The notes beneath the pieces were generated by a model that made no database searches, was not told where the DNA came from, and was given only the letters and a program-made list of their open reading frames with translations. The position numbers were made by a program, and so were the translations under genes. A stretch of DNA of 64,000 nucleotides. Origin: Candidatus Doudnabacteria bacterium (GTDB lineage Bacteria; Patescibacteriota; Doudnabacteria; UBA920). Below are positions 1 through 30,320 of the stretch, in pieces; position 1 is the stretch's first letter; the number at the start of each line of letters is the position of its first letter. The DNA lies in NCBI GenBank assembly GCA_031291995.1, contig JARLHZ010000025.1, forward strand, positions 25,174 to 89,173. Reading direction: 5' to 3'.

Positions 1-2
1 GA

Positions 3-13379: not shown

Positions 13380-13773
13380 TTTTTATTTCCTTAACCTTTT
13401 TCAGGCTTTTATCATTGGTAATAAATCTATCCGCGCCCGAGTCTATGGCCGTGGCGATATGTATGGCATCGGGGGTGAGCAAACCATATTCCGCGCGCAG
13501 GCTGGAAGCGATGTCTGCAATATCATCGGACAAATTTATTATCAGTAAATTAGGATAATTATAGAGCCTGTTTTTGTATTCGGCGGCCAATCCATAATTG
13601 CCGTCTATTTTGGGTCCGGTGAACAGTTCTATCATGCCAATCAGCGAAAACACCCCAACGCTTCGTCCGGTTTCAATTTCCTTGAGTATGGATACGGATG
13701 CATCTGCCACCGCCCCCAAATCTTCAAAGGCGTAAATAAAAATGCTTGTATCTAAACCTATTATTTGTCCCAT
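13366..13773 (-). CDS. vapC: PIN-domain toxin (VapC-like)
   Basis: MGQIIGLDTSIFIYAFE...TPDAIHIATAI...ITNDKSL carries the PIN acidic residues. Confidence 0.75.
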   Translation of the reverse strand: MGQIIGLDTSIFIYAFEDLGAVADASVSILKEIETGRSVGVFSLIGMIELFTGPKIDGNYGLAAEYKNRLYNYPNLLIINLSDDIADIASSLRAEYGLLTPDAIHIATAIDSGADRFITNDKSLKKVKEIKIELL

Positions 13774-14009
13774 GAGCGGCGCTCGCCTTTAATATACTTG
13801 TCGGCCCCTCCCAGCTTTTTCCAGACATCCTTACCCAGTCCCCTTAGTGATTCGGCATAACCACCAGGCGCCGGGTGCTTAAGCAGCAAGGCATGGCTGT
13901 CGTCTACAGCATATAACGTTAGCAAATCGCCCTTGCGCAATTTTAACCGCTCACGCACCATTGCCGGTATGACAATCTGATTCTTTGAGGACATTTTGAT
14001 CTTTTTCAT
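13761..14009 (-). CDS. vapB: AbrB/MazE/SpoVT-type antitoxin (VapB-like)
   Basis: SSKNQIVIPAMVRERLKLRKGDLL swapped-hairpin motif. Overlaps vapC. Confidence 0.7.
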   Translation of the reverse strand: MKKIKMSSKNQIVIPAMVRERLKLRKGDLLTLYAVDDSHALLLKHPAPGGYAESLRGLGKDVWKKLGGADKYIKGERRSWDK

Positions 14010-14065
14010 AAAATTTGCGATATTAATATAACCCTTTACATTTTATATAAAAGTAAAGGGGATTG

Positions 14066-16951
14066 TCAATTTTGCTCAATTGGCTTCATCTCCCCCCAAT
14101 TGTCCCCAACTTTGGCTTCCACCTTTACCGGAACTGATAATTTAATAGCATTTTCCATCAATGGAATGAGTTTCTTGACCCACGTCTCCACTTTGTCTTC
14201 GGACACCTCAAACACCAATTCGTCGTGCACTTGCAAAAGCATCCGTATTTCCGGCCTCTCCGAGGGCAACCCTCGGAAAACCCTATGGATATTGATCATT
14301 GCGACTTTTATTACGTCGGCGGCTAACGACTGGATGGGAAAATTCACGGCCGCGCGTTCGGCGGCGGCACGAATAAAGAATTGGGAAGATTTGATTTCCG
14401 GAAATTTGCGCATGCGGCCAAGCTCGTTTTTTACAAACCCTTCCTGGTTGACCTGGAGTTTTATCTGTTCTATATATTGTTCCACTGCGGGATACGCCGC
14501 GAAGTATTTGGCAATAAATTCCTTGGCTTCGGCGCGGGAGACTTCGCCAATCCTGGACGACAACCCAAAACTGGACAGCCCGTATAAAATTCCAAAATTT
14601 ATGGTCTTGGCGTCGCGGCGCATATCCGGGGTAATTTTATCCGCGGCCACCCCAAAAATTTCCATGGCTGTTTTGCTGTGAATGTCCTCGCCGTTCTTAA
14701 ACACCTCCAGCATCTTTTTGTCTTTGGCCAAATGCGCCACAATCCTCAGCTCAATTTGGCTATAATCAATCGATAAAAGTTTATACCCCTTTTCCGCCAC
14801 AAACGCCTGCCGAACTTTGCTGCCTAGCCCTTCCCCGCGCACCGGAATATTCTGCAAATTTGGATCAATCGATGATAATCTACCCGTTGCCGCAATCGTC
14901 TGATTGTAATTAGTATGTATTCGTCCGGTTTTTTTATTTACCAGTTCCGGCAATGTTAACAAATAAGTAGACTGCAGTTTGGAAAGTTCCCGGTATTCCA
15001 AAATTTTATCTATGACCGGATGCTGGCCCTTCATTTTTTCCAGTTCCCCTGCCGCGGTACTTAAGCCGGTTTTGGTTTTACGATTTGCTATCGGCTCCAG
15101 CTTCATCCGCTCAAATAAAACTTCCTTCATCTGCTTGGGAGAGTTTAAATTAAACTCCTCGCCCGTAAGTTTATAAATTTTGCTTTCCAGTTCCTTAATG
15201 TCTATTTCCGCCTCGGCCGATAATTTATTCAAAAACTTGCTGTCCAATTTAATGCCATTTAACTCCATAGCGGCCAAAACTTCCACCAGCGGCATTTCTA
15301 TATCGTAAAAAACTTTTTCCAGGCCTTCGGTTTTTAATTGCGGCTCAAAAATCTCCTTAAGCCTCAGCGTCATATCCACGTCTTCACAGCAATACCAGCT
15401 AACTTTTGCCGGCTCAACCTTATCCATAGTTATCTGGTTTTTCCCCTTGCCAATTAACTCCTCGATGGGCTGCATCTGATAGCCCAACTCATTAAAGGCC
15501 AAGGCGTCAAGCCCATGCTGGCGGGTAGCCGCGTTAAGAAGATAGGAGGCAATCATGGAGTCAAAAGAGATAGTGGACAGTGGATAGTGGCCAGTGGTCA
15601 GTATTTCCAGGTCGTACTTTATATTGTGGCCGATTTTTTTGATTTTTGGATCAGCTAAAATATTTTTTAATTCCGCTGACGATTCCAGAAGCGCCGCCAG
15701 CACATAATAAGCCTCGCCGGGTTTAACGCACAAACCCACGCCGACTAATTTGGCGTCCATGGTATCCAGACTCGTAGTTTCGGTATCTATAACCAGCTCT
15801 TTGACCGATGATAGTTTTTTTATGAGTGCTAATAGTTTGTCGTCAGTATCAACAAACTGATAATCTTGTTTGCCGATTGAAGACACAACCCCCTCCCCTC
15901 GCTTCGCCCCGTACCATCCGGTACCGGGCTTCGCAGGGTACTCCTCCTCGGACAAGGAGGAGAGACTCCGCCCTGGTCCGGAATTTAAGAGCACTCGCGG
16001 AGCTTCCCCTCCTTGCTGAGGAGGGGTGTCCGCGTTAGCGGACGGGGTGGTGCCCGTCTTCGGCAATTTGCTAATCAAGCTCCTAAACTCCAGCTCCTGA
16101 AAAAGTTTTACCACAACCGATAAATGTCCGGCGTCTAAATCGTATTTTGGAATATCAATTTCCAGCGGCACATTACAATCAATTACAGAAAGTTTATATG
16201 ACATCCTAGCCTGATCTTCCTGCGCCTTCAGCAACTCCAAAATCCGGGATTTTACCCTATTACCTGTTGTCTGTTCGCTAATCGCTTTATAAAGATTATC
16301 CAGCGATCCAAATTCCTTAATAAGTTCCCCTGCCGTCTTTTCGCCAATTCCTTTTACCCCCGGAATATTATCGGACGGATCACCTCGAAGAGACTTATAG
16401 TCCACCATCTGGTCAGGATTCAGCCCGTAACGCGCCCTAACTGCCTTGGCGTCGTAAATTACCACATCCGTAATTCCTTTGCGCATGGTATAAACTTTTA
16501 TTACGTGGTTAACCAGCTGTAAAGTATCCAAGTCGCCTGTGACAATAATGACTTCCGCTTCCGGATTTAACTTATGAAGCTTCATGGCCAAAGTTCCAAG
16601 GCAGTCGTCCGCCTCAAACCCCTGCTTTTCAAAAATCTGAATATTCAACGCGCGCACCACTTCCTTAACTCGCGGGATTTGGTCGTAAAGTTCCTGGTCG
16701 GCCTTGACCCGCGTCCCCTTATAGTCCTTATATTGTTCATGCCGAAACGTCGGGCCGGCCAAATCAAAAGTACAGGCAATGTGGGTGGGTTTGATGTCGG
16801 CAATGGCTTTAAGTAAAATCATGGTAAAACCATAAACCGCGTTAGTCTGCTCTCCGGATTTGGTATTTAGTACCGGAATAGCGTGATAGCCGCGGTGAAT
16901 TAGCGCGTTACCATCGACTAACATGTAGCGATTTTGAGTCGGTTTAACCAT
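14066..16951 (-). CDS. polA: DNA polymerase I (5'-3' exonuclease, 3'-5' exonuclease-like and polymerase domains)
   Basis: Polymerase motifs DYSQIELR, RRDAKTINFGILYG and QVHDELVFE, with the 5' nuclease N-terminus MVKPTQNRYMLVDGNALIHRGYHA. Start chosen at the internal Met; the ORF track extends to 17119. Contains a GC-rich low-complexity insert (see findings). Confidence 0.9.
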   Translation of the reverse strand: MVKPTQNRYMLVDGNALIHRGYHAIPVLNTKSGEQTNAVYGFTMILLKAIADIKPTHIACTFDLAGPTFRHEQYKDYKGTRVKADQELYDQIPRVKEVVRALNIQIFEKQGFEADDCLGTLAMKLHKLNPEAEVIIVTGDLDTLQLVNHVIKVYTMRKGITDVVIYDAKAVRARYGLNPDQMVDYKSLRGDPSDNIPGVKGIGEKTAGELIKEFGSLDNLYKAISEQTTGNRVKSRILELLKAQEDQARMSYKLSVIDCNVPLEIDIPKYDLDAGHLSVVVKLFQELEFRSLISKLPKTGTTPSANADTPPQQGGEAPRVLLNSGPGRSLSSLSEEEYPAKPGTGWYGAKRGEGVVSSIGKQDYQFVDTDDKLLALIKKLSSVKELVIDTETTSLDTMDAKLVGVGLCVKPGEAYYVLAALLESSAELKNILADPKIKKIGHNIKYDLEILTTGHYPLSTISFDSMIASYLLNAATRQHGLDALAFNELGYQMQPIEELIGKGKNQITMDKVEPAKVSWYCCEDVDMTLRLKEIFEPQLKTEGLEKVFYDIEMPLVEVLAAMELNGIKLDSKFLNKLSAEAEIDIKELESKIYKLTGEEFNLNSPKQMKEVLFERMKLEPIANRKTKTGLSTAAGELEKMKGQHPVIDKILEYRELSKLQSTYLLTLPELVNKKTGRIHTNYNQTIAATGRLSSIDPNLQNIPVRGEGLGSKVRQAFVAEKGYKLLSIDYSQIELRIVAHLAKDKKMLEVFKNGEDIHSKTAMEIFGVAADKITPDMRRDAKTINFGILYGLSSFGLSSRIGEVSRAEAKEFIAKYFAAYPAVEQYIEQIKLQVNQEGFVKNELGRMRKFPEIKSSQFFIRAAAERAAVNFPIQSLAADVIKVAMINIHRVFRGLPSERPEIRMLLQVHDELVFEVSEDKVETWVKKLIPLMENAIKLSVPVKVEAKVGDNWGEMKPIEQN

Positions 16952-17018
16952 ACCGGTATTATAATCTATTGCCGCCTCATTGGTCGAATTGTATTGAACA
17001 TAAGCCAAAGTACGTGTT

Positions 17019-19130
17019 ATGCTGTGGGCAATGAAATTAAGCAAAAAACAAAAATACTGGGCGGTTTCGGGTCTAATATTAATAGGCCTGTTTTGCGCCT
17101 GGCAAACACTGTCCACCAAATTGAACAGCCGGCTCCAAGCCGATTATATTATACTCAATTCCCGGGTTGTATACGACCGGACCGGCACAATTATCGAAGT
17201 CAATCCCAATAGCCGGGGGAACTACGACCAATTTACCGAGGCCATCCCGCCGCGCGTCGCGCAATTACTTCTCAAAAAAGAAGACCGGTTTTTTTACCTA
17301 CATCCCGGGTTTAACCCCTTGAGTCTGGCGCGGGATTTTTACAGTTACCTGATTACCGGCAGACGCGCCGGGTCTTCCACCATAACCCAGCAGCTGGTTA
17401 AAACGTTGCTGGCCAACGAAAACCAGCGCTCCTGGAAAAATAAAATCACGGAACTAATTTATACCGAGGCTCTGGAATGGAACAATTCGAAAAAAAGTAT
17501 TTTAACCATGTACTTAAACAGCGCCTATTTTGGCAGCCAGTCCGAAGGGCTCAAGCAGGCCAGCCTGGATAATTTTGGCTCGCCCCCGGAAACTCTAAAC
17601 GACGCGCAAATCCTGTCCCTTCTCGCCGCGCTAAACAGCCCGTCCCAAAACCAGCCGGGAACGGCAACTAATATAAAATACGCCAAAAATCTGGCTAATA
17701 AATTCCGGCTTTCCATAAACGACTCGGACTGGATGAATCTTTCGCCCGCCTTGGCCGAAAAATCTTCCCGCAGTTCCAACGCGGCTTTTGAAGTTAATTC
17801 CCTTAATTTAAATTGCCCGGTTAACTGCCAAACAACTTTGGATGCCGGCCTCACCCAAAACATCCGCGCCATTTTAAAACGCGATTTGACTTCGCAAGCC
17901 CTGGATACCGCGGAAAACGGCGCTGTGGTGGTTATTAAGCTGCCGGAAAATCAGATTTTAAGCATTGTCGGTTCGCCCGACCCATCATCGCCGGGAGAAG
18001 GCATGCAATTGGACATGGCCGTAAAACCCCGGCCCATCGGCTCCACCTCCAAACCGTTTATTTATATGAACGCCTTTGAAGAAGGCGCGCGCCCGTTCAG
18101 CCTGGTGGATGACACGGAAATGAAATATGAGCTGGCCTCGGGTTTTGATTTTTTTCCCAAAAATTTTGACGGCCAATACCGCGGCCTCGTCACGCTCCAC
18201 CAGGCGCTCGACAACAGCCTGAACATCCCAAGCGTCCAGGTACTGGAGTTTGTCGGCCTGGACCACTTTTATAAATTTATGTACGACCAAATGGGCTTTA
18301 CCCCGCTGCAGCCATTGGAAAGCTACGAATTGGGTATTGCACTGGGCGGTTTGGAGTCGGATTTACTAACGCTGTCCAACTATTTTACCATTTTCCCCAA
18401 TCAGGGCGTGTTAAAACCGTTAACGCTTTACCAGGAAACTTTAAGCCCCTATTATAAAGATCCGATGGCCAAACTCATTACCGAGCCAAAACAAGTCGGA
18501 CAGGAGCCGATGGTGGAGCTGGTCAACCGTGTTTTAAACGACCGTGACACGGGCGTGAACCAGTTCGGGATAGAAAGCAGCCTTAATCTGCCGTATACCA
18601 ATTACGGCGTGAAAACGGGCACGTCGCGCGATTACCACGACAGCTGGACCATGGGCTATACGCCGGACTTTTTGGTCGGCGTGTGGGTGGGCAACAGCAA
18701 TAACACAGCCATGCGGCAAATTACCGGCCTGGCCGGCGCGGCCAAAGTCTGGCATGAGGTCATGCAGGTTATGTACAACTCGGAATATAATAAAAACACG
18801 CCGTTTAACTTTAGTAAAATCCGGGAAATCCAAAGCGGCAATACCCTGGATTTCGGTTTGGACGGCGACGACTACAATACCATCCGCAATATTATGTTAA
18901 AAAATAATTTAATTCTCTCCCCGCATCAGGACGACAAATATTTGCTTCTGCCCGGCACCACCATTCCCCTTTCCGCCTCCCAGGAAGTAACTTGGTCCGT
19001 TAACGGCCAATTCTTCGCCAAATCCCAAAAATCTTTCTGGCCTCCCCCCTCCCCCGGCACCTACACCATTTCCGCCGAATCCTCGGACGGAAAAACGGAA
19101 CAGGTAACCATAAATATAAACAAAAAGTAA
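17019..19130 (+). CDS. Class A penicillin-binding protein, PBP1C-like (transglycosylase, transpeptidase and a PbpC-type C-terminal domain)
   Basis: GT51 motifs EDRFFYLHPGFNP and GSSTITQQLVK, transpeptidase STSKPF...KTGTS. The C-terminal 90 aa (TWSVNGQFF...PGTYTISAESSDGKTEQVTININ) resembles the PbpC C-terminal domain. Confidence 0.75.
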   Translation: MLWAMKLSKKQKYWAVSGLILIGLFCAWQTLSTKLNSRLQADYIILNSRVVYDRTGTIIEVNPNSRGNYDQFTEAIPPRVAQLLLKKEDRFFYLHPGFNPLSLARDFYSYLITGRRAGSSTITQQLVKTLLANENQRSWKNKITELIYTEALEWNNSKKSILTMYLNSAYFGSQSEGLKQASLDNFGSPPETLNDAQILSLLAALNSPSQNQPGTATNIKYAKNLANKFRLSINDSDWMNLSPALAEKSSRSSNAAFEVNSLNLNCPVNCQTTLDAGLTQNIRAILKRDLTSQALDTAENGAVVVIKLPENQILSIVGSPDPSSPGEGMQLDMAVKPRPIGSTSKPFIYMNAFEEGARPFSLVDDTEMKYELASGFDFFPKNFDGQYRGLVTLHQALDNSLNIPSVQVLEFVGLDHFYKFMYDQMGFTPLQPLESYELGIALGGLESDLLTLSNYFTIFPNQGVLKPLTLYQETLSPYYKDPMAKLITEPKQVGQEPMVELVNRVLNDRDTGVNQFGIESSLNLPYTNYGVKTGTSRDYHDSWTMGYTPDFLVGVWVGNSNNTAMRQITGLAGAAKVWHEVMQVMYNSEYNKNTPFNFSKIREIQSGNTLDFGLDGDDYNTIRNIMLKNNLILSPHQDDKYLLLPGTTIPLSASQEVTWSVNGQFFAKSQKSFWPPPSPGTYTISAESSDGKTEQVTININKK

Positions 19131-19206
19131 TTTTGACTTTTTAATTTGCAAGTTGCCTTTATGTTCAGGCGGGTAATTCATCGATATAACCTTCTGTCTT
19201 TTAACA

Positions 19207-19236
19207 AAACACTCGCCTGATTTACAGGCGAGTGTT
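19207..19236. terminator. Bidirectional hairpin terminator between the convergent PBP and alpha-2-macroglobulin genes
   Basis: aaacactcgcctg-attta-caggcgagtgttt. Confidence 0.65.
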
Positions 19237-19252
19237 TACAATTATCCGATGG

Positions 19253-22200
19253 TTATTGGGTAATCGTGAAATATTCTCCGCCGCTTCGGCCGAAGTTTTC
19301 GGGGGTGTAGAGTTCGCTGGCTATGGCGGGCTGGGCTTGGAATTTGCCGGGGATTAGGGCGCGGATAAAGTAATCATATTCATAGACGCCCGGGTCGAGA
19401 TGCTGGTTAAACAGCATCAGGCGGTCGTCGTGAAATTCCGTGGAATCGGGCCGCAACTTGTCCGTTTGGGTAATAAAGCCGGAGTAAATTTCGTCCGGCA
19501 AATCGCCCTGGGCGGAAGAGGCCGGCGACAGCGCGCTCTTACGCACAAACCAGCCTTTTATCCAAAGCCAGGTTCTGGTAAAAAATCCGGGCCGGTTCAC
19601 CACAACCGGTTTTGGCGCGGGGATGGGCGCCGCGGTTATCTGATTGTCGATATTCACCGGCGCGTTAGCCTGACCGGCCAGATTTTGGTCTTCCGTGGCC
19701 AAATTATAATTAACCAATTGCGTGCCGGCCGGAATGAAGCTTTCTACGGCCACAAAATTCCGCGGTTTCGTAATGGTAATGGTTAAATGCCCGCGCAGGA
19801 CATCACCAACTTTGGCTGAAGTCAGCGGCGTTTTACCGGCCGCGTCATCCAAAGCGTACATTTCCCTTTGCACGGTAAAGCCCTCGTCTTTGGGCGCCAC
19901 GCCGTCGATAGGCAGATAATATTTCAACACCATGTCGTAATAAAAACCGTTTGGCTGGTCATTGAGATTTTTTTTGACGAACTTCAGTTCGCTTAACTTA
20001 TTCGGCGTAAAACTGTCTATCGGGATGATGGCGCTAAGCGAGCCTAAAATATTCTGACTGTTAAAAGTCACGCCGCCTTTATTGTTGCCGTCCTGAAATA
20101 AATCCAAACTGAAATTGGAAAGATTTTCGCGGCTAAAATTCAGGTAATCCACCAGCGCGTCCAAAACCGTAGCTGTGTTGTTTGTTGTCCCCCACGACCC
20201 GTCCTGGGCGCGGGAATTTTGCAGCCAGCGGATAAGCTTGTCCGTCATGGCAAAACTTCGGCTGGCATCCGCCTCCGCTTTTAGCAGGAGCGCGGTATCC
20301 TTAACCGGCGTTTCGTAATACTGCCACAAATTCTCCTGCGTACTGCCGGTGGACAAATAAGCGCCGCGGCCATCCACCACCACGCGATTTTCCAAAACGG
20401 TGAAAACTTTCCGGCTAAACGCGCTGGATTGGTTTTGCGAAGTCAGCAGCGCCAAATAAACCAAAGACAAATTACTGATGTCTTCCTGAAAATATTTGCT
20501 GTTTTGGTCAAGCCTTAACACCCGGCTCATGAGCAGGGACAGCTCTCCGGCCTGGCTGTTTATGCCGCTTAAAGTATAGGCGGTCAAAATTAACGTGTCA
20601 TTATTGGAATTTAACCCTAAAGTGCCGTTAAACGTCTGGGCCACATAAGCCGCGGCTTTGTCTTCGGCCGTCTGGTTAATCTTGTAACCGGCCTGCTTTA
20701 ACTGCTGTAGGGCGTTAATCACATCCAGAGTCAAATAATAATCCGAACTCATTTGCGGATAATAAGCAAAACCACCGTCGGAATTCTGATTGGACATAAT
20801 TCTCTGCTGGCCGATTTGGATGACATCGTCCGCCGAATAACTCTGGCCGTCAAAAGTTACGTTCGGCAATTTAAATTTGTCGCCCAAATTTTTAATTTGC
20901 GTAAAACGTTTGGCCGTAGCCACGGCGGCCAGCTTGCTCATCATCTGTTCGGTACAGCCGTACGGATACTGGACCAGATAATTTAAGGCGTCCGGAATTA
21001 CCCCGGCCAGCGTGGCCGAACCTTTTACAGTTACCCCGCCTTTGCCCGGCACCACGTTTTGCGGCAGCCAGACATATTCGCTGGCAGTGGCATCCGTCGT
21101 ATAATTGGAAGTCGAGACCGCCTCATAAGTCCGGCTCGGCTCCACCGGAAAACTGGCGTCCACGCTGTCCTGGAAGTTGTTATTTTTGGCGGTCAGGTTT
21201 AAAGTATCCGTGCCGCTATCCATAGAGGTCGGAGCCGTGACTTTAAAATAGACGCTTTGAGTCTGCCCGGCATCCAGTGAAATATTTTGGCTTTTATTGT
21301 CGGTTATTTGCAAAGTCGAACTGTCCAAAGTTACCGCCAGCTGTTGTTTGGCACCGGTCTGGTTAAACACTTTGCCGCCCACCACAAACTGGTCGCCGGG
21401 AATAATAAACAACGGCACTAAAGGTGTAACCATCAGCTGTTTTTGGGCGGTAAACTGCCCGTAGCCCACACCCAGTTTGGTGTCCTGCGTGAGCCCGAGG
21501 CTTTCCACCTGCCAAGTGGTCAAATTGTCCGGTAACGTAAACTTAACCTGGGCGTGACCAGCGGCATCGGTTTCCACATCGCTGTTCCAGTATGCCGTAT
21601 CTTTAAACACGCCGCGTTTTTTGTTGGCCAAATCCCCGGGCTCGGCGCCGCTCCCGCCTTTGGTGCCGGTTGGAATTTGCGCCTGCTCCAGAATATTTTT
21701 TAAGTTGGATGATGTCGTCACCGCCAGAGGCCGTCCATCGTAAAAGAAACTGACCGGATCTTTTTTGGGGTTGCCCGCCAAAGCCAGTACGCTCAAATCT
21801 GCCACGGACAACGACACGTCGGCCGCCACCGGCTTCCCGCCCGCGTCTTTGGTGGTAATGTTAAGCGTTACCTCTTCGCCCGGTAAATAACTGCTCTTGT
21901 TGGGCGCAGCCTCCACGGTAATGGTTTTTTCTTTGGTATTAACAAAGAATTCCGCCTGGCCGAATTTAACCTGGGGATCGGGCGACAACAGCAAAACTGT
22001 GGCGTAAAAATTCGGGTAATACGAGTCTTTCACCTGGAAAGTATAGTTGTAAAAATTGCTGTTAATGTCCACAACCTGATAATCCATTATCCGGCCGCTT
22101 TCAATGGCAATAAGCGCCTTGGCTTTGGTAAAGGGCGATTTAATTACCATGCTCGCCGATTGTCCGGCCTCAACCTGGGAATTGGGCACCGCAATATCCA

Positions 22201-25200
22201 AAGAATCGTTATTCAATGGCTGAATATCCACAGTCCCGCTGCCATAAACATAAAAACTCTGGCTGGAGGTAACCGGGTTACCGCGGCTGTCCTTGCCTAA
22301 AACATCCAGTTCGTATTCGCCTTCATCTTTGACCGTAAAATCCTGGCTGAAATTTCCCTGGCCGTCGGTATTGGCGGTAATGGTCTGGACGGTATCCAGC
22401 TTTTTCTGGGAATTATAATAGTAACCGCCGTCGACTTCCTGGCGCTTATCGTACTGCCAGGTGACTTTGCTGACCGTGGCGGAAATATTGGAAACGGACA
22501 CCGGCTTTCCCTGGGTATCCACGGATTTGATTAAAATTTTATTCGGCTGGTTGGCGGCAAAATAATTATTCTGCAAATTCACCCCGAGATAAAACAATCC
22601 GCGGTGTACAATAAACGACTGTTCGCCCGAAACCGACTGGCCGGTACTGTTTTTGACCGTGACGCGCACGTCAAAAATTTTACTCTGCTTGCGGTCGTCG
22701 CTATTGGAAAATAGTTTATCAAAATCGAGGTCCTGCGTAATCGTCGCTTTTCCCTGATTGTCCAAATTCGCTTTGCCCCGCAAAATAAAATTATCTCCAT
22801 AAATCGGGCTGGGCGAATAATACCAACCGGCGCCGAACTGGAAGTTTTGGTCCTGATAGCGGTCAAAGTAATAGTTCTGCGCCAGCACGGAATACTCCAC
22901 GCTACCTCCTTCCACCGGCACGCCAAAATAGTAGTTGGCGTTAACATTGAGGTTAAAATTATCGCCGGCAATGTATTCCGGTTTGTCCGTGGATAAATCC
23001 AGTTTAAAAGCGGACGGCACGTATTCTTCCACGTCAAAAGTATAAATACCGCCCAAGGCTTCCACTCGGTACGTTCCCAGCGGGGCATCGGCCGGTAAAT
23101 CAAACTCGGTATTAAACGTTCCTTGAGCGGTAATATTCAAATCCTGAGTTTGAACCGCGTTGTTATTACTGTCAAAAATCTGCATATGCGCCGGCTTGCC
23201 CTGGAAAACCTGGTAAACGCCGTCGTAACCGATGCGATACAAACCCTTAATGAAAACCTGTTGGCCGGGACGGTAAATTGGCCGGTCGGAATAAATATAG
23301 GTTTTATCGCCGCCCGGGTTAGCCCCCGACCACTGGAATTTGTCCGTAGCCGAAGAAACCAGCGTGCTGTCCTGTCCGTTAGTCACAATAGCCGCCCCAT
23401 AACCGCTATAAGCTTTGGTTCTCGCGATGCCGTCACTGCCGGTTTGAGCGTTATCAAACAAAGTATAGCCGCCTTTGTTCCCCTGCTGGTAAACCGCGAC
23501 TTGGGCGCCGGCTACGGCATCCATACTGCCGATTTGCGTTACCCAATATAAATTCCCCTGGGCATCATTTATAACTTGATTTTCCACCGACCGCTCGGGA
23601 GTTGCGCCATCCGCCACCTCCACCTTTTTTTCCTGCGCCGCCAAATTGGTCACGTTCAAAAAAGTCCGCTCGAACAACATTGGGCCCGGATTGGTTTGGC
23701 CGGTTTTATAATCATAAACCTGCTGGCGCAAATTGGGATTGGAAAAAGTTAAGATATAATAACCCAACGGGTCGGGCACGAGATCCCGCAAGTCAAACTG
23801 GAAATAATTCAAATCCCAATATTTGGGCGGCCAGGTAATATTCTTTTGCCAGGTCTGCTGGCAATTTAAACTCTGCCCCGGCGTCGAATCGGATGGCCGG
23901 TTGGCCAAATACTGGAGCATGGCCTGTGCCGTAACCTGGCAAACCTGCAAATCAACATTGTCCAAATTTTCCGTGGCGTAAGTCAGCTTGGTTTGGCCGG
24001 GAGAAGTTACATTGTAATCTTTTTGCAAAGAATTAAATCCGGTGTGCAGGCTGTCAATTTTTCCCGAGGTAAAACTTAAATTTTGGCTGACGTTCTGGCC
24101 GAACTGGTCGGTTAAATTTAACTGTAACTGATAATCGGTCTGGGGATGCAGGCCGTAAAGCAAGTGGCTGTCATATTGTCCCGCGTCGCATTTTTCATTA
24201 TCGCCGGGTTGCCTGGAAGATACTTTATACGGCGGTTGCCACGTCCACTTACCCACCGTAACATTAGACTTCAGTATTTGGTAAAAAGTTTCGGGCTGGG
24301 CGTCGACAATCGGCGTGTTGCTGCAAATGACCAGGTCGGTAACGCTCGCGGAATTTTCTCCCTGGGCCGGGGAAGTGCTCAGAATCTTTGGCTGAGGATA
24401 AACCGTCACCGACTCATGGATGCTTTGGGAATTTAACTGCAGACCCTTGGTATTTACGATTTTTACCAATTCCACGTCAAAATTTTGGGCGGGCGCAAAG
24501 CTATCCGGATTGAAACTTAACAGGAGCTGCTTTTTATTGTCTTGTTTTTGGCAATCCGAACCGTTCATTATTTTGTTGCCGTCGGCATCATACTGGCAAA
24601 CCTGGCCATATGACACGCCGGTAAAATTGGGGGCTTTAAACTGGGAACTGTCTTTGTCGATATCTTCATAAAAATTCAGAACCAGATGCCCTTTTGGGTC
24701 AAACAAACCCGGATCAACCAATTCCGAACGCGGGGAATCGGCCGCCACCGACGCAATAATGTCCGGCACCTGGATCTGGACCGTCCTCGCCTCATCCAAT
24801 TTAATATCACCTTCAAGCGGTACCGCGCCTTTAATAGTTACCGAATAATTGGAATTACTGTCCCAAAATTTGGCCCGCCCGAATTTGTCTTTTTGCTGAT
24901 ATATATAGAGCAGGGACTTGTCGACATAATCGGCTTGTTTTCCGTTGCTGCCCAGGCTGACCGCGCGCGTCCCATATTCCGCGACAAAAGGCACGTTGCC
25001 GTTGTTGCCGGTATTTTTTACATCAATTAACCCCTGGGTCTTATTTAAGTCCACAGGCTGGTTAAACTGGATACTGACCGGTTCGTCATACAGCGTCGGC
25101 CCATCGTGATGAATGGTGTTGGAGTTATAGCGTAGCGGCCGGGTAGTAAAATGACTTTCCATAGGCGCCACCGGCAAACCATCCATCGACACAAAACCGC

Positions 25201-25918
25201 TACCCACGCTAACGGTGTAGTTACTGGACCTGGCAAGTCGCGTGTCGGGAATAAACTGTAAGTTCCGCGTGCTAATCCATTTAAACTTTCCGGCGGTTTG
25301 AGGGGTTATAGTCACGGGAATTTTCACGCTCAGCTGTTGGTCTAAAGTTGTCAGCGGGATCATGGGCCGGTTAAAAGCGATGGTAACGCTCGAAGTCTCA
25401 GGCGCTTCGCTGCCGTCTTTGGGTAAAATGATGTCGATTTTTGGGTCGTCTACAACCTGAAAATCCTTGGCCAGATTCACTCCGTCCGCCGCCAAGGTAA
25501 TATGATAATATGTGTTCAACTTTAGCTGTTGTTCGGGTTTAAATACCAATTGTTTGACGGTCGAACCTGCCGACCAACTGCCCAATACTTCGGGGTCAAA
25601 GCTGATGCTGTTTTTTGCCTCATCGGGAGTTAAGTTTATGCTGTCCGGCAAATTTACCAGCACGGCGGCGCTTTGGGAAATTTTATCCGCCACCAGCCCC
25701 TGCGGCTGGTCCTGCCACTTAGGACCGTAATTTTTTTGATAAAAATAATGATAACCAAAAAAACCTACTCCGGCAAAAATTAAAACCGCCGCCAGAATAC
25801 CCAAAACCAGTCGGGATTTTTTCCAAACAGGAATTTTGGCTTTCGGCGGGATTAAATTACCCATGGGCATTTGGCCCGGTTCCGGAGGAATTTCGTCCAT
25901 ATAATTTAATTTCCTCAA
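19253..25918 (-). CDS. Alpha-2-macroglobulin family protein (bacterial A2M, MG domains plus thioester)
   Basis: 2221 aa with an N-terminal TM anchor. Thioester-type motif YPYGCTEQ followed by the A2M receptor-binding-like C-terminus. Confidence 0.8.
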   Translation of the reverse strand: MRKLNYMDEIPPEPGQMPMGNLIPPKAKIPVWKKSRLVLGILAAVLIFAGVGFFGYHYFYQKNYGPKWQDQPQGLVADKISQSAAVLVNLPDSINLTPDEAKNSISFDPEVLGSWSAGSTVKQLVFKPEQQLKLNTYYHITLAADGVNLAKDFQVVDDPKIDIILPKDGSEAPETSSVTIAFNRPMIPLTTLDQQLSVKIPVTITPQTAGKFKWISTRNLQFIPDTRLARSSNYTVSVGSGFVSMDGLPVAPMESHFTTRPLRYNSNTIHHDGPTLYDEPVSIQFNQPVDLNKTQGLIDVKNTGNNGNVPFVAEYGTRAVSLGSNGKQADYVDKSLLYIYQQKDKFGRAKFWDSNSNYSVTIKGAVPLEGDIKLDEARTVQIQVPDIIASVAADSPRSELVDPGLFDPKGHLVLNFYEDIDKDSSQFKAPNFTGVSYGQVCQYDADGNKIMNGSDCQKQDNKKQLLLSFNPDSFAPAQNFDVELVKIVNTKGLQLNSQSIHESVTVYPQPKILSTSPAQGENSASVTDLVICSNTPIVDAQPETFYQILKSNVTVGKWTWQPPYKVSSRQPGDNEKCDAGQYDSHLLYGLHPQTDYQLQLNLTDQFGQNVSQNLSFTSGKIDSLHTGFNSLQKDYNVTSPGQTKLTYATENLDNVDLQVCQVTAQAMLQYLANRPSDSTPGQSLNCQQTWQKNITWPPKYWDLNYFQFDLRDLVPDPLGYYILTFSNPNLRQQVYDYKTGQTNPGPMLFERTFLNVTNLAAQEKKVEVADGATPERSVENQVINDAQGNLYWVTQIGSMDAVAGAQVAVYQQGNKGGYTLFDNAQTGSDGIARTKAYSGYGAAIVTNGQDSTLVSSATDKFQWSGANPGGDKTYIYSDRPIYRPGQQVFIKGLYRIGYDGVYQVFQGKPAHMQIFDSNNNAVQTQDLNITAQGTFNTEFDLPADAPLGTYRVEALGGIYTFDVEEYVPSAFKLDLSTDKPEYIAGDNFNLNVNANYYFGVPVEGGSVEYSVLAQNYYFDRYQDQNFQFGAGWYYSPSPIYGDNFILRGKANLDNQGKATITQDLDFDKLFSNSDDRKQSKIFDVRVTVKNSTGQSVSGEQSFIVHRGLFYLGVNLQNNYFAANQPNKILIKSVDTQGKPVSVSNISATVSKVTWQYDKRQEVDGGYYYNSQKKLDTVQTITANTDGQGNFSQDFTVKDEGEYELDVLGKDSRGNPVTSSQSFYVYGSGTVDIQPLNNDSLDIAVPNSQVEAGQSASMVIKSPFTKAKALIAIESGRIMDYQVVDINSNFYNYTFQVKDSYYPNFYATVLLLSPDPQVKFGQAEFFVNTKEKTITVEAAPNKSSYLPGEEVTLNITTKDAGGKPVAADVSLSVADLSVLALAGNPKKDPVSFFYDGRPLAVTTSSNLKNILEQAQIPTGTKGGSGAEPGDLANKKRGVFKDTAYWNSDVETDAAGHAQVKFTLPDNLTTWQVESLGLTQDTKLGVGYGQFTAQKQLMVTPLVPLFIIPGDQFVVGGKVFNQTGAKQQLAVTLDSSTLQITDNKSQNISLDAGQTQSVYFKVTAPTSMDSGTDTLNLTAKNNNFQDSVDASFPVEPSRTYEAVSTSNYTTDATASEYVWLPQNVVPGKGGVTVKGSATLAGVIPDALNYLVQYPYGCTEQMMSKLAAVATAKRFTQIKNLGDKFKLPNVTFDGQSYSADDVIQIGQQRIMSNQNSDGGFAYYPQMSSDYYLTLDVINALQQLKQAGYKINQTAEDKAAAYVAQTFNGTLGLNSNNDTLILTAYTLSGINSQAGELSLLMSRVLRLDQNSKYFQEDISNLSLVYLALLTSQNQSSAFSRKVFTVLENRVVVDGRGAYLSTGSTQENLWQYYETPVKDTALLLKAEADASRSFAMTDKLIRWLQNSRAQDGSWGTTNNTATVLDALVDYLNFSRENLSNFSLDLFQDGNNKGGVTFNSQNILGSLSAIIPIDSFTPNKLSELKFVKKNLNDQPNGFYYDMVLKYYLPIDGVAPKDEGFTVQREMYALDDAAGKTPLTSAKVGDVLRGHLTITITKPRNFVAVESFIPAGTQLVNYNLATEDQNLAGQANAPVNIDNQITAAPIPAPKPVVVNRPGFFTRTWLWIKGWFVRKSALSPASSAQGDLPDEIYSGFITQTDKLRPDSTEFHDDRLMLFNQHLDPGVYEYDYFIRALIPGKFQAQPAIASELYTPENFGRSGGEYFTITQ

Positions 25919-25974
25919 AATTAAGATTAAATTTTTGTTTATAAGCTTATTATAGATGAAAGACGCTCAATGTC

Positions 25975-26013
25975 AAAAAATCCGCCCCAGCTCATTTGAG
26001 GGGCGGATTTTTT
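25975..26013. terminator. Hairpin terminator downstream of the surface-protein gene
   Basis: aaaaatccgcccc-agctcatttga-ggggcggatttttt. Confidence 0.65.
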
Positions 26014-26038
26014 ATTGATTATTTAACAGATAATCGAA

Positions 26039-29000
26039 TTATTGTCCGGAAGTTCCAGCCGTAAAAGTTACGGGTATAGATATCGCCACGTTAGGGATAC
26101 TGGAATTAATGTTGTTAATTATTACGTGCCCGTTAAAAATGGTTCCCGGGGGAGTTCCGGCAGGAATTACCACCGAAACATAAAAAGTGGAGTTACCGGC
26201 TACTGTAATTAATCCGGTTCCTGATCCTTGGCTGGAATTCGATACCCCAAGCCAAGACAGACTATTTGAATCTACTTGAACTATTAAGGGGTTAACGGTT
26301 GTGGCCGAAGAAAAATTTCCTCCGCTCACAGCAATAGCCTGCGCCGTGGTGCTAGCTGTAGAAACAAAGTTTAAAGATGTCGGAGCAACCGTAACGCCGC
26401 TTTGCGTGCCACAAATCCCGTTAACCTGGTCCAGCGGGCTGTTGCAACCGGCCTGTCTCATTGGCACGACGCCGATTTGGCTTAGCGCTTGTTCGGCGCT
26501 GTTGGCCGGCACCACATTCGTAAAACTAAAATTCCAGGAGTTAAATGTAAGAAGATCGGGAAACCCATACAGGCCGTTTGGCCCGACCAAATAAACCGTG
26601 CCGTTGTTGTTAATAATTGCTCCTACCCGAATACCGGTCGAACCCGAAACTGTAAAGTTTAAAGAGTTGCTTATACTTGAGCCGTTGCTGACATAAACCG
26701 AGTAAACGCCGGCGGCAACCGCAATCGAAGGCGCATTGCACGGACCGAGTTCGCCGGTTGAAATAGCGCAGGATGGCAAGTACGATGCCGGAACAATAAA
26801 AGTTAAAGTACTGCCGTCGGACGAAGCGCTCCCAGCCGTGCTAACTATACCCTGGCCAAAGTGGACAATATACTGGGTGCCGGGTGCAAACCCGCTACCG
26901 CTCATTGTCACCGTGGTACCGACCGGTCCGCTAGGGGGACTTAAACTATTAATGAAAGGGCCAGTGGAAGTTCCGCTGGTAACAGTAAACGGTTGAGTAT
27001 TGCTTGTCCCATTGGCGTTGACCACCGAGACCTGATAATTACCCGGGCCGACATTCAAATAATACTGTGGGCAGGCCGTACCGGCTGGACAATATGCGCC
27101 CATACCGCTCGGGATGTTAAATTGTAAAGTTTTCCCGTCGCTGGAACTGACATTACCTGCTGCCAAATTATTTGCCATTAAGATATTATTACCCGTTGAG
27201 GTAAACCCGCTGCCGGATATTGTCACCTGTGCGCCGACCGGACCGGAAGTCGGGTTTATTGTACTAATGGTCGGTATAGAACTAATTTTAACCAGATGTG
27301 CGCCGCACACCGGGTAAGGCTGTCCGCCCACATATTGGTAACCAGCCGGAGGCGCGGGATATTCACACTGCTGTGCGACAGTCGAGCTAACGATATTAAA
27401 TGGCGCGGGGCTGGAGCCGCTGGCGACAATGCCCGAGGCATCGGAAACCGTAATTACATATTGACCCGAAGTTAAACTCGCGCTGCCGCCGGACAGGTTA
27501 TTTACTTGGCCAACCGTCCAGCTATAGGAACCTGTATTGGCTACGTGATTGGCTATAACAAACGGCGCGAGAGTGGCTATCATCGGGCAAGGACCACTGG
27601 TGCAAGGGACTACATAATGGGAAATAGTAATATTTACATTGGATAACGGCGCCGAATTATTCCACTTTATAGTTTGCGTGTTACCCATTGTCCATTGCTC
27701 GCCGCCCGTAGGTGAAGTAATAACTATCGCCGATTGTGAACCGGTACATGTTCCGTTTATCTGACTAATCGGATCATTACAATTCGGATTGCGCGAAGGT
27801 ACAATGCCAATTTGGCTTAAGGCCTGTTCGGCGCTGCTCGCCTGGAGGACTTGCCTGAAGTTCCATCCCCAGGAATAAAATACCGCCAGGCTGGGAATAC
27901 CATACAACCCATTCTGCCCGACTAAATATACTGTACCGCCGTTGGTAAAGATAAGTTTGCCAACGCGGATATTGGAATTAGATTGTGCCGGATTAACAAC
28001 TAAAGTAAATTGCTTGCCTATTCCAGCCGAACCCGTACCCGCGTAAGATGGATCATTAATGGACAGGTTAAATGTATAGGTCCCGGCAGTTGTTGGCGTC
28101 CCATTAATATAAACTGTCCCGGTTCCTCCGCTTAAAGCTGGGGTCATGCCGTTGTTATTTAAACTCGGCGAGCCGGCTATCCCGGTATACAATCCGGGGG
28201 GCAAGCTGGAAAAACTGGAGTTTAAGGCATCCTGACCGCTGTAGGTGTAATAAATACCGCTGGCATAAGCTTGTCCGACAGTGGCGTTCGGTAAGCTAGT
28301 GGTAGTAATTTTCAAAGACTGGGAATTGCTGTTTGCGGCATTAACCACCATCACAAATTGTTTGGTCTGGGTCAAACCGCTTTGGTTGCTGACAGTCAAA
28401 GTAACATTATAATTTCCGGCTTGTGTTGGCGTGCCAACTAAAGTAATAACATTGGATTGCTCGTATTGGGAAAATAATTCGGTATTAAATACCTGTCCCG
28501 GGCTCATGGTTTCCGGCATCCCAATCCCCGCGGGCAGTCCGCTAAATGTCACCGACACCGGATTGACACTCCCCGTTTGGCTGAAGGTAATAGCGCTATT
28601 GGAATAGCTCTGGCCTACTGTAGCCGGCAATACTGAAAACTGATTAATAACCAGTGTGGGGGCAGGCAAACTGGCCGGAGCCGGATTTATTGTTAAGGTT
28701 ACCGGGACGATTATGGGTGCTCCCGGGAAGCTGCCGTTAATTTTAATATTAGTAGTATAAGTCCCTGTTGCAAGACCCGAAGGATTTATACCGGCGCCAA
28801 AACCATTGAGGACTTGCGGGTCGGCCGACAGGGTGCTGGTGTTATAACTCTCATTAAACCAAGCCGGCTGGTTGTCGACGCTGAATGAATACGGAACCGA
28901 AGTATTGGTAACGTTTACTAAAACCGCCGACTGCTGCTGGTAGATAACGTCTCCCTGGTTGGCCGTAAAATTAAAGGAAGTTTGAGATAACTTTAGGGTC

Positions 29001-30100
29001 TGCAGGGCGCTGGGCAATTCCGGACTTACAGTCACAGTAAAAGTATTGTTAGCCGTATTTCCCGCCGCATCAGTTACAGTGGCGGTGATTGTGTAGTTAC
29101 CCGCGGATTGCCAAATGTGGTATTGGGTATCAACCAAGCCCGAATATAAATTGGAACCCAATGAGAGAGCGGAATTATCGCCCCAATTAATAGAGTAACC
29201 TAATGAGCCAAACGGACTGGCGGAAACAAAATTATAAGTTGCAACGTTTCCAGCCATAACGGATGCCGGACCGGTGATAACCGGTTTGATTAAAGCCGCG
29301 GTTTGCGCGCAAGTATTATTAATTTGATCAAAGGGGTTGGCACAGCCGGAAAGTTTGGAAGGTACCATGCCGATTTGCGATAAAGCCAGTTCCGCGGCGT
29401 TGGCCGGGATAATCTGATTAAACGTAAAATTCCAGGAATAAAAAACCGCGGCGCTAGGAAAACCGTACAGGCCGTTTGACGCGACCAAATATACCGTTTT
29501 ATCGGTTGGGGTATAAATTAATTGACCAACCCGGATGGAAGCCGCAGTCGTGGTGGCTGAATGGTTATTAGAAGAGCCGCAAGTCCCGGCCAGCTGGGAC
29601 AGTGGATCACCGCATCCCGTCAAACGCGTCGGGACGTTGCTCAAAACGCTTAAATTCTGTTCGGCGGCATTTTCGGGTACAATCTGATTAAACTTAAAAT
29701 TCCAGGCGTAAAAAGTCGCGGCATTGGTAAAACCGTATAAGCCGTGCTGCCCGACTAAATATACCGTCTTACTTGTCGGATTATAAACCAGCTGCCCCAC
29801 TCGAATGGATGTTGTATCGCCAAGCACCCGGCCGCTAAACCCAAGCAGGTTTGGTTTGGCATGGGACATGGCTACCCGGGGGCTTGGGTCAACCGCCGTG
29901 GCAATTTCGGGAGAAGCCAAAGCCGCCAGCCCCGCTACCGAACTTGCGGCAAACAGCACAAATAATAAAGCCGCCAACGAATTCATGGGCGAATTAAAAA
30001 TCGCGTTAGTCCATGAGCTGATGGCGGATACCTTGCCGGTCCGTTTAACCGGTTTACGCGCGGAGCCGACTCTGCGCTTGCCGTAGGTGTAGGGGTTCAT
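26039..30100 (-). CDS. Large secreted/surface protein with four ~80-aa internal repeats and two IPT/TIG-like domains
   Basis: 1353 aa with an N-terminal TM/signal. Repeat consensus IRVGQLVYxPTxKTVYLVGxNGLYGFPxAAVFYSWNFxFNQ(I/V)xPAxxAExALSQIGxVPxxxxGCxxPxxQ(I/V)NGTC occurs four times. TIG-like PTISTINPTSGPVGAQVTISGSGF. AGGAGG RBS. Confidence 0.7.
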   Translation of the reverse strand: MNPYTYGKRRVGSARKPVKRTGKVSAISSWTNAIFNSPMNSLAALLFVLFAASSVAGLAALASPEIATAVDPSPRVAMSHAKPNLLGFSGRVLGDTTSIRVGQLVYNPTSKTVYLVGQHGLYGFTNAATFYAWNFKFNQIVPENAAEQNLSVLSNVPTRLTGCGDPLSQLAGTCGSSNNHSATTTAASIRVGQLIYTPTDKTVYLVASNGLYGFPSAAVFYSWNFTFNQIIPANAAELALSQIGMVPSKLSGCANPFDQINNTCAQTAALIKPVITGPASVMAGNVATYNFVSASPFGSLGYSINWGDNSALSLGSNLYSGLVDTQYHIWQSAGNYTITATVTDAAGNTANNTFTVTVSPELPSALQTLKLSQTSFNFTANQGDVIYQQQSAVLVNVTNTSVPYSFSVDNQPAWFNESYNTSTLSADPQVLNGFGAGINPSGLATGTYTTNIKINGSFPGAPIIVPVTLTINPAPASLPAPTLVINQFSVLPATVGQSYSNSAITFSQTGSVNPVSVTFSGLPAGIGMPETMSPGQVFNTELFSQYEQSNVITLVGTPTQAGNYNVTLTVSNQSGLTQTKQFVMVVNAANSNSQSLKITTTSLPNATVGQAYASGIYYTYSGQDALNSSFSSLPPGLYTGIAGSPSLNNNGMTPALSGGTGTVYINGTPTTAGTYTFNLSINDPSYAGTGSAGIGKQFTLVVNPAQSNSNIRVGKLIFTNGGTVYLVGQNGLYGIPSLAVFYSWGWNFRQVLQASSAEQALSQIGIVPSRNPNCNDPISQINGTCTGSQSAIVITSPTGGEQWTMGNTQTIKWNNSAPLSNVNITISHYVVPCTSGPCPMIATLAPFVIANHVANTGSYSWTVGQVNNLSGGSASLTSGQYVITVSDASGIVASGSSPAPFNIVSSTVAQQCEYPAPPAGYQYVGGQPYPVCGAHLVKISSIPTISTINPTSGPVGAQVTISGSGFTSTGNNILMANNLAAGNVSSSDGKTLQFNIPSGMGAYCPAGTACPQYYLNVGPGNYQVSVVNANGTSNTQPFTVTSGTSTGPFINSLSPPSGPVGTTVTMSGSGFAPGTQYIVHFGQGIVSTAGSASSDGSTLTFIVPASYLPSCAISTGELGPCNAPSIAVAAGVYSVYVSNGSSISNSLNFTVSGSTGIRVGAIINNNGTVYLVGPNGLYGFPDLLTFNSWNFSFTNVVPANSAEQALSQIGVVPMRQAGCNSPLDQVNGICGTQSGVTVAPTSLNFVSTASTTAQAIAVSGGNFSSATTVNPLIVQVDSNSLSWLGVSNSSQGSGTGLITVAGNSTFYVSVVIPAGTPPGTIFNGHVIINNINSSIPNVAISIPVTFTAGTSGQ

Positions 30101-30320
30101 TTGCTTGGCCTGTTAATTCCTCCTAAAGGACGTTTAACAGATATTTTTCCCGCAAAAAACCTAAACTCGGCTGATTTTGGCCGGCAAGGAATTTGCGATA
30201 TTAATTTTTATTTTTGTTTCAAAGGTGAACGGCTAATTTTGGCCAGACACCAAATTTAAAACTTGTACAATTATTATAGCATAAAATCATAAATTCCGCA
30301 AGAGCCCCGTATTATAACTA

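Follow-up and report, generated by a model that had tools for sequence, protein, structure and literature searches.

Bacterial alpha-2-macroglobulins (A2Ms) and the penicillin-binding protein (PBP) PBP1c are read as partners in defence and repair, acting in the periplasm when a breach of the outer membrane has occurred (PMC5764988, PMC4498604, PMC3328433). What would such a pair be doing in a bacterium that has no outer membrane? The question is raised by a stretch of 64,000 nucleotides of contig JARLHZ010000025.1, referred to here as the window, which comes from a metagenome-assembled genome (MAG) of Candidatus Doudnabacteria, a member of the Patescibacteria or Candidate Phyla Radiation (CPR). 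In it, a gene for a PBP1C-like class A PBP and a gene for a thioester-containing A2M lie tail-to-tail. A sequence-only reading of the window had supposed a monoderm host with a reduced genome; the source is indeed a Patescibacterium, and the phylum is described as monoderm (PMC11665869).

We show that the adjacency of the two genes is lineage-wide and selectively maintained. Taking into consideration this linkage together with the domains and motifs of the two proteins, we hold it probable, at roughly 0.6, that the locus is the Patescibacteria version of the Type I A2M/PBP1C pair: a surface protease trap and a dedicated peptidoglycan (PG) synthase, working without an outer membrane.

The two genes are placed as follows.

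17031..19130, forward strand: gene for a PBP1C-like class A PBP, 699 aa from the ATG at 17031, 100% identical to MDR3642769.1
19253..25900, reverse strand: gene for a thioester A2M (2215 aa, MDR3642770.1) that belongs to the long patescibacterial type

Both open reading frames (ORFs) of the sequence-only reading exist as described (17019..19130, forward, 703 aa; 19253..25918, reverse, 2221 aa), and only their starts were refined. For the PBP, the longest ORF begins at 17019, while the GenBank start at 17031 gives 699 aa. The A2M ORF reaches back to a TTG at 25918; its start is most likely the ATG at 25900, which has a GAGGA (25912..25916) 11 nt before it and yields the 2215-aa protein deposited in GenBank. 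The GenBank names were already generic, MDR3642770.1 being an 'MG2 domain-containing protein [Candidatus Doudnabacteria bacterium]'. The genes are convergent, as had been said, with 122 bp between the stop codons. Chance ORFs are ruled out because hundreds of full-length homologs exist for the two genes.

The two proteins of the pair

The features of the A2M, from its N-terminus to its C-terminus, are listed below; MG stands for macroglobulin, Ig for immunoglobulin and CTMG for the C-terminal MG domain.

25742..25810, reverse strand: predicted N-terminal transmembrane anchor LVLGILAAVLIFAGVGFFGYHYF, a 23-residue hydrophobic helix, residues 31-53
23351..25684, reverse strand: stalk at the N-terminus, made of some seven Ig/MG-like beta-sandwich domains with Big_5 among them, residues ~73-850
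21779..22201, reverse strand: bait-region domain, A2M_BRD, PF07703, 73.1 bits, profile positions 1-140 of 140
21596..21733, reverse strand: bait loop RPLAVTTSSNLKNILEQAQIPTGTKGGSGAEPGDLANKKRGVFKDT, residues 1390-1435, aligned to the ECAM/SaA2M bait segment …GRLAALRFGGDGDELKRGGK…
20144..20998, reverse strand: thioester domain (TED), TED_complement, PF07678, Pfam 48.7 bits, containing YPYGCTEQ
20945..20959, reverse strand: GCTEQ thioester motif, residues 1648-1652
19298..19678, reverse strand: C-terminal MG10 (CTMG) region, matched by Pfam bMG10 in two stretches
19451..19678, reverse strand: MG10 insertion, variable, partly amphipathic and aromatic, GFFTRTWLWIKGWFVRK, residues ~2075-2150
19421..19432, reverse strand: HDDR activation motif of MG10, residues 2157-2160
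19307..19318, reverse strand: SELY activation motif of MG10, residues 2195-2198

Pfam recognised Big_5, MG2, bMG5, bMG6, A2M_BRD, A2M, TED_complement and bMG10 in this protein, and it matches the solved structures 4u48, 4ziq, 4rtd and 5a42 at E values of about 1e-20 to 1e-18. Its identity with ECAM, the A2M of Escherichia coli, is 21% across ~1400 residues, from query residue 808 and ECAM residue 325 onwards. These matches establish the domain architecture, by which we identify the protein as a Type I (thioester) bacterial A2M with a bait region.

The thioester, bait and activation motifs are conserved. When the protein is aligned to 4u48, YPYGCTEQ pairs with the YPYGCLEQ of SaA2M, and its first Tyr falls opposite the SaA2M 'lock' Tyr1175, the residue changed in the Y1175G mutant (4u4j). 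CxEQ is retained in 34/35 aligned proteins and in 75/78 loci that span the TED (96%). Three relatives have an altered or lost motif (AGSEQ in locus L057, GSTEE in L034, GCTDQ in L066), and in L057 and L066 the convergent PBP partner is still present. In the bait loop, K1414, G1415, G1416, G1418, L1424, K1428, R1429 and G1430 are invariant among 35 family members; the bait of ECAM comprises Arg923-Leu942 (PMC4498604). In MG10, HDDR and SELY correspond to the RDDR and ExMY motifs of ECAM, which hold on to the TED while that protein is native and to the cleaved bait once it is activated (PMC4498604). A His stands where RDDR has its first Arg, the family consensus for the second motif is SEMY, and D2158, D2159, R2160, E2196 and Y2198 are invariant across the family. 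The GCTEQ thioester noted in the sequence, and the bait region expected with it, are thus borne out by the TED_complement and A2M_BRD matches and by the alignments to SaA2M and ECAM.

The helix at residues 31-53 is preceded by a basic, Pro-rich tail of 30 residues, which we read as cytoplasmic. A single N-terminal hydrophobic helix behind a variable charged tail is found in 35/35 aligned members, with Kyte-Doolittle 19-residue maxima of 1.7-3.4, and a search of the N-termini for a lipobox cysteine found none in the A2M or in any of these 35. This type of anchoring is common to the whole alignment, and we infer that the A2M is held in the membrane by an uncleaved signal anchor or transmembrane segment.

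Behind the helix comes the stalk. For residues 60-870, AlphaFold2 (AF2) run on an alignment of 38 sequences gave an all-beta model, with a mean predicted local distance difference test (pLDDT) score of 86.7 and about seven sandwich domains ahead of the domain matched by Pfam MG2. The only compact Foldseek match was to the MG0-NIE-MG1 domains of ECAM (4zjg, TMt 0.56), which cover just part of the region; the other matches were generic tandem-Ig arrays. Since SaA2M residue 360 aligns with query residue 844, there are ~480 additional N-terminal residues that have no counterpart in ECAM/SaA2M. Cysteines C435, C450, C526, C571, C654 and C680 are invariant in 35 family members and form three close pairs, which suggests three disulfides in a stalk lying outside the cytoplasm.

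The A2M had been called unusually long. This is so against the 1653 aa of ECAM; within the clade, however, it is the norm, the 120 best homologs listed measuring 2079-2268 aa, those that are named being from Parcubacteria or Patescibacteria. An exhaustive search found the N-terminal module in 106 clusters at E <= 1e-30, always N-terminal, in full-length members of 2000-2370 aa. The MG10 insertion varies from 28 to 117 aa across the family; its sequence is poorly conserved, an amphipathic aromatic stretch is frequent, and a possible role is contact with the membrane or with a partner.

The PBP, together with a second class A PBP encoded in the window, has the following features.

17235..17678, forward strand: glycosyltransferase domain, Transgly, PF00912, Pfam 129.6 bits
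17280..17294, forward strand: EDRFF motif of the glycosyltransferase domain
17376..17393, forward strand: STITQQ motif of the glycosyltransferase domain
17919..18701, forward strand: transpeptidase domain, PF00905, Pfam 52.8 bits
18042..18053, forward strand: STSK motif of the transpeptidase domain
18216..18224, forward strand: SLN motif of the transpeptidase domain
18612..18620, forward strand: KTG motif of the transpeptidase domain
18912..19112, forward strand: PbpC-type C-terminal domain, BiPBP_C, PF06832, residues 632-698, 32.5 bits (gathering score 26.8)
51505..54363, reverse strand: second class A PBP, 952 aa, with Transgly, Transpeptidase and a Big_7 Ig domain

The motifs that define a class A PBP (EDxxF, STITQQ, K..E, SxxK, SxN and KTG) are all intact in the two catalytic domains of the A2M-linked protein. 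Among 58 patescibacterial partner PBPs, E88, D89, S120, T121, Q125, K128 and E145 of the glycosyltransferase and S342/K345, S400/N402 and K532/T533/G534 of the transpeptidase are invariant. The AF2 model (pLDDT 86.3; predicted template-modelling score, pTM, 0.77) places the two catalytic domains between a long N-terminal helix (residues 5-40) and an all-beta C-terminal sandwich (597-697). Neither BLASTP nor HHalign, the latter given just one E. coli sequence, carried the alignment with E. coli PbpC into the C-terminal domain, both ending near residue 590; the assignment of this domain therefore rests on Pfam and on the AF2 fold. The PbpC-type C-terminal domain claimed by the sequence-only reading is recognised by PF06832 above its gathering score. 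Foldseek matches of the model in the PDB were to PBP1a, PBP1b and PBP2, with PBP1b and PBP2 at the top, because the PDB holds no PBP1c structure.

The class of the protein had also been judged correctly. Its best NCBIfam model is TIGR02073, PBP_1c, with 382 bits against 275.5 bits for PBP_1a_fam; the score stays under the curated TIGR02073 cut-off of 494.2, and the protein is therefore called PBP1C-like and not a certified equivalog. The second PBP of the window shows the reverse preference, with 517 bits for PBP_1a_fam (passing the cut-off of 508.75) and 405 bits for PBP_1c, and is probably the housekeeping synthase. The two window PBPs are 27% identical to each other, as are the A2M-linked PBP and E. 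coli PbpC. By these scores the A2M-linked PBP is classed as an accessory PBP1C-like paralogue and not as the housekeeping synthase, with a PBP1A-family enzyme encoded 32 kb off.

Recurrence of the pair and its local setting

Whether the same pairing recurs in related genomes had been posed as a check by the sequence-only reading. One genome per GTDB species was scanned; 231 relatives were returned and 80 loci kept, nearly all of them labelled as Patescibacteria lineages (the records name Doudna-, Sung-, Ryan-, Lloyd-, Taylor-, Kaiser-, Adler-, Nomura-, Falkow-, Lipton- and Woesebacteria, among others). Partners were detected by tblastn with the window PBP, followed by extension to stop codons. 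A locus was counted as informative if it had a partner match or if its sequence continued for at least 2.3 kb downstream of the A2M, which left 70.

A PBP1C-like gene adjoins the A2M gene in 67/70 informative loci, and the pairing does recur. The partner lies directly downstream on the opposite strand, that is convergent, in 62 loci; it is co-directional and downstream of the A2M in three, co-directional and upstream in one, divergent in one, and not nearby in three. The partner PBPs are 40-65% identical to that of the window. As a control, the other neighbours of the window pair (PolA, the PKD protein, PilB and others) are shared by only 0-4/80 loci, and general synteny was rejected as the cause of the pairing. 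Since the partner is kept in 67/70 loci and the other neighbours in 0-4/80, the pair has been preserved against thorough rearrangement, and through changes of orientation.

The convergent genes end close to each other. In the 62 convergent pairs the median distance between stop codons is 31.5 bp: the genes overlap by 4-26 bp in 12 pairs and are separated by 0-25 bp in 19, by 26-125 bp in 11, by 126-300 bp in six and by more than 300 bp, with unrelated inserts, in 14. A gap of 25 bp or less is found in 29/55 A2M-PBP pairs and in 19/91 other convergent pairs of the same loci (Fisher p = 1e-4, on crude ORF calls and uncorrected for shared ancestry). A recurrent third gene between the partners was looked for and rejected, the ORFs inserted in the 14 wide-gap loci sharing no similarity with one another.

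The exceptions are individual. In L037 (PBP at 16423..18513) and L038 (16371..18482) the PBP gene is co-directional and downstream, and its overlap with the A2M stop, of 4 or 26 bp, resembles that of an operon; both MAGs carry the label Coprothermobacterota, a label that is unconfirmed. In L015 it is co-directional and begins 24 bp after the A2M, and L024 and L071 supply the remaining variants, one co-directional upstream and one divergent. No PBP1C-like gene was found near the A2M in L007, L013 and L052, where at least 2.5 kb downstream were scanned; these come from a Sungbacteria MAG, a MAG labelled 'Saccharibacteria' and a Peregrinibacteria MAG. For comparison, yfhM and pbpC of E. coli K-12 are co-directional and contiguous, with 0 bp between them.

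The transcription signals of the window are these.

19207..19237, between the two convergent stop codons: hairpin with a perfect 13-bp stem and a 5-nt loop
25949..25976, reverse strand: perfect sigma-70 consensus promoter for the A2M (TTGACA, 16 nt, TATAAT; 12/12)
25985..26001, directly before the A2M promoter: terminator-like hairpin of the gene upstream of the A2M

The hairpin between the genes is strong (dG -22 and -22.7 kcal/mol, z = -6.5 and -6.8 on the two strands, with 0/200 shuffles as stable), and the U-tract that follows it is better on the A2M (reverse) transcript, UUUUGUU, than on the PBP (forward) transcript. It is plausibly a bidirectional intrinsic terminator. That the genes share one bidirectional terminator, as had been proposed, therefore fits this window; it does not extend to the relatives, where a conserved shared terminator was rejected because half of the convergent pairs (31/62, with stops 25 bp or less apart or overlapping) leave no space for one. 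The terminator-like hairpin upstream and the consensus promoter of its own make the A2M a separate transcription unit in this genome. A conserved strong promoter 5' of the A2M was likewise rejected, the best -35/-10 scores in 65 relatives being barely different from those of intragenic controls. Both the hairpin terminator and the perfect promoter are peculiar to this window.

On the strand of the A2M and directly upstream of it, with the terminator and promoter between, is a 1353-aa PKD/Ig-domain surface protein (26039..30100, reverse), and next beyond it a PilB-type type IV pilus ATPase (30372..32027, reverse); with the A2M they make up a small cell-surface gene cluster. Further off, a dnaA, dnaN and recF-like cluster occupies 43947..47808 (reverse) and ~47.8-48.0 kb, the cumulative GC-skew has its minimum at 44-46 kb, and 11/27 DnaA-box-like sites (TTATCCACA, with at most 1 mismatch) fall within 44.8-47.9 kb. 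The replication origin is probably located at this cluster, at a distance of ~22-29 kb from the pair. Further genes of note, or with a relation to the envelope, encode a VanW-like protein (35259..36512, forward), a Wzy_C (O-antigen ligase-like) membrane protein (50214..51401, reverse) and a RhuM/Fic-domain protein (9915..10994, reverse). Over its whole 64 kb (1..64000), no tRNA genes were found and there were no Rfam matches at gathering thresholds.

Proposed function and alternatives

Read as a protease trap with its own PG synthase, the pair would work as follows. The single N-terminal transmembrane helix would hold the A2M in the cytoplasmic membrane, and the stalk of about seven domains would project the macroglobulin ring, the bait, CUB/TED and MG10 outward, through or along the wall. 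The host being monoderm, the A2M would face the cell exterior or the wall and not a periplasm bounded by an outer membrane; with a transmembrane anchor and a longer stalk, the trap could plausibly extend through the wall. A foreign protease would cut the bait loop, the cut would free the lock between MG10 and TED (the Tyr lock and HDDR/SE[LM]Y) and expose the Cys-Gln thioester, and the thioester would then bond covalently to the protease. The PBP, predicted to be anchored by its N-terminal helix and complete in its motifs for glycan polymerisation and DD-transpeptidation, would build or repair PG where the envelope is under enzymatic attack. The two genes are transcribed apart, toward each other. 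The surface topology of the A2M, its trapping of proteases, the repair role of the PBP and any physical or regulatory coupling of the two are predictions from their sequences; together they point to a system by which CPR cells probably protect themselves at their exposed surface.

Several points weigh against this reading. The defence-and-repair idea is still a hypothesis in E. coli itself, where PBP1c has no known role in laboratory conditions (PMC7554673), and our knowledge of the clade comes from sequences and predicted structures. The monoderm status of the source organism is taken from the literature on its phylum (PMC11665869). The operon logic that speaks for coupling in other bacteria is inapplicable, because convergent genes cannot be co-transcribed. 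On the side of the PBP, there is the score under the PBP_1c cut-off, and PF06832 is detectable at E <= 1e-3 in just 25/58 partner PBPs, although the region can be aligned in 58/58. On the side of the A2M, the conservation of the bait loop across the 35 family members is unusual for a broad-spectrum bait; it could reflect a specific protease target, or a structural role instead of that of a decoy.

A bait loop that is conserved and not hypervariable suits activation by a single specific protease more than it suits a broad decoy, and this is among the reasons to consider that the A2M might be a covalent adhesin or an opsonin-like tag. By analogy with complement C3/TEP and with Gram-positive thioester-domain adhesins, the thioester, activated by proteolysis at the contact zone, would link the epibiont to the surface of its host, while the PBP would remodel the wall at the attachment site. 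The anchoring of the A2M on a stalk of about seven domains, the almost universal retention of the thioester, and the PKD/Ig giant protein and type IV pilus ATPase directly upstream would all suit such a role, as would the life of Patescibacteria, most of which are episymbionts and carry elaborate surface proteins (PMC11665869, PMC8080830). However, the bait-region domain, the Tyr lock and the RDDR/ExMY-like CTMG motifs match the protease-trapping ECAM/SaA2M and not the TEDs of adhesins, and Pfam matched no adhesin-type thioester-domain family in the A2M. The PBP1C link, moreover, is common to free-living and enteric Gram-negatives, in which adhesion to a bacterial host is irrelevant (PMC5764988). 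We regard the adhesin role as unlikely.

Equally doubtful, to our mind, is that the A2M might chiefly support or regulate the PBP1C-like synthase as its structural partner, in the manner of LpoA/LpoB for PBP1a/1b. The pair would then be a core wall-synthesis module, in which thioester and bait would sense damage and turn synthesis on, and would count for little as an inhibitor. A direct interaction of PBP1c with the A2M's C-terminal region has been suggested for E. coli (PMC3328433), and the lineage-variable amphipathic insertion lies in MG10. The adjacency outlasts changes of orientation (convergent, co-directional, divergent) and, in at least one locus (L057), the loss of the thioester Cys, and the pair is kept in the reduced genomes of many lineages. 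On the other hand, a separate PBP1A-family enzyme is available for housekeeping synthesis, the partner is not nearby in 3/70 loci, and the thioester is present in 96% of loci, which argues that the covalent chemistry matters.

We also entertain, as a speculation with little probability, that the A2M and the PBP1C-like synthase might be an envelope module of ancient origin, obligately coupled and needing no periplasm for its function, in which, in Patescibacteria, the coupling comes about through the conserved tail-to-tail arrangement, whose 3' ends often overlap. Possible means are mutual antisense transcription or collision of RNA polymerases that balances the two products, the co-insertion of the two membrane proteins, made at neighbouring loci, or a direct complex of the two, local PG synthesis being switched on when the A2M bait is cleaved. 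If this were true, the textbook view of bacterial A2Ms as a backup for Gram-negatives with a breached outer membrane would give way to that of a general damage-sensing wall-repair system.

That the adjacency is inherited gene order without functional meaning, the two genes being independent, is very improbable: convergent genes are not co-transcribed and the loci are related by descent, so that their counts are not independent events, but the other neighbours did not stay with the pair, the adjacency has come through at least three relative orientations, the same pair occurs in E. coli at 21-27% protein identity, and the convergent ends are tighter than those of other convergent pairs in the same loci.

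Comparison with known systems

In its core, the window A2M resembles ECAM/YfhM (4ziq, 4rtd, 5a42) and SaA2M (4u48). It shares with them CxEQ in a complement-type TED with an aligned Tyr lock, a bait-region domain and a bait loop with GG…(K)KRG, the MG2, bMG5, bMG6 and A2M domains, and a C-terminal MG10 with RDDR/ExMY-like motifs; N-terminal membrane anchoring and a gene beside one of the PBP1C type are also common to them. It differs in that ECAM and SaA2M are lipoproteins, whereas the window protein has a transmembrane helix and no lipobox, and in the variable MG10 insertion of patescibacterial A2Ms. Compared with the ECAM-type layout (~1650 aa and 13 domains, with MG0/NIE or MG1-2, the MG ring, bait-region domain, CUB, TED and CTMG), the core layout is present and the N-terminus is longer, the ~480 extra residues forming beta-sandwich domains with the six invariant Cys. 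The ECAM gene lies upstream of pbpC in an operon, while the window genes are convergent; of the Type I trait of lying beside pbpC as an operon, the adjacency is thus seen (67/70) and the operon is not (62/67 convergent).

The PBP is like E. coli PBP1c (PbpC) in being a class A bifunctional enzyme with BiPBP_C and PBP_1c as its best NCBIfam model, and a non-housekeeping paralogue adjoining a Type I A2M. Unlike E. coli PbpC, with which it shares 27% identity, it has 699 aa instead of 770, and its gene runs toward the A2M gene instead of following it.

Type II A2Ms, P. aeruginosa MagD and E. coli YfaS, have a macroglobulin fold and a bait region and are membrane-associated (PMC5764988). They resemble the window A2M in fold and bait; unlike it, they are without a CxEQ thioester and belong to a six-gene magABCDEF operon, whereas the window A2M has PolA, the PBP, the PKD protein and PilB as neighbours and no mag genes. 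The automatic annotation of JGI labels several of its relatives 'YfaS family'. A Gram-positive thioester-domain adhesin was also considered and rejected, the sole thioester-domain match being of the A2M/complement type within a full MG/BRD/CUB/MG10 architecture (BRD, bait-region domain).

Closer by lineage are the giant surface proteins of the CPR predator Vampirococcus lugosii, which contain A2M domains, measure 2368 and 1895 aa and are inferred to be membrane-localised (PMC8080830, PMC9793634); a role against host proteases has been proposed for them (PMC8080830). The two papers also note A2M homologs in MAGs of Paceibacteria and Gracilibacteria. All of these belong to the same phylum-level group as the window A2M and are likewise large. 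One 2368-aa representative in our searches has the N-terminal module at 29% identity, its sameness with the Vampirococcus protein being unconfirmed. As far as the available portions of PMC8080830 and PMC9793634 go, they treat the A2M alone and make no mention of thioester, bait, anchoring or a PBP1C-type link. A literature search of limited extent found no paper that links a CPR or monoderm A2M to a PBP1C gene, and a 2026 review still describes bacterial A2Ms as Gram-negative proteins (PMC12939704).

That the pair is conserved throughout a monoderm lineage as large and as distant as this one, whose members are ultrasmall and for the most part attached to hosts, indicates that selection preserves the A2M-PBP1c partnership itself, for which neither an outer membrane nor co-transcription is required. 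It also provides a second, very distant set of natural A2M/PBP1c pairs for interface prediction, co-evolution analysis and biochemistry. Set beside the E. coli version, in which the pair itself was already known, what is new is that the anchor, the length of the stalk and the orientation of the genes all differ.

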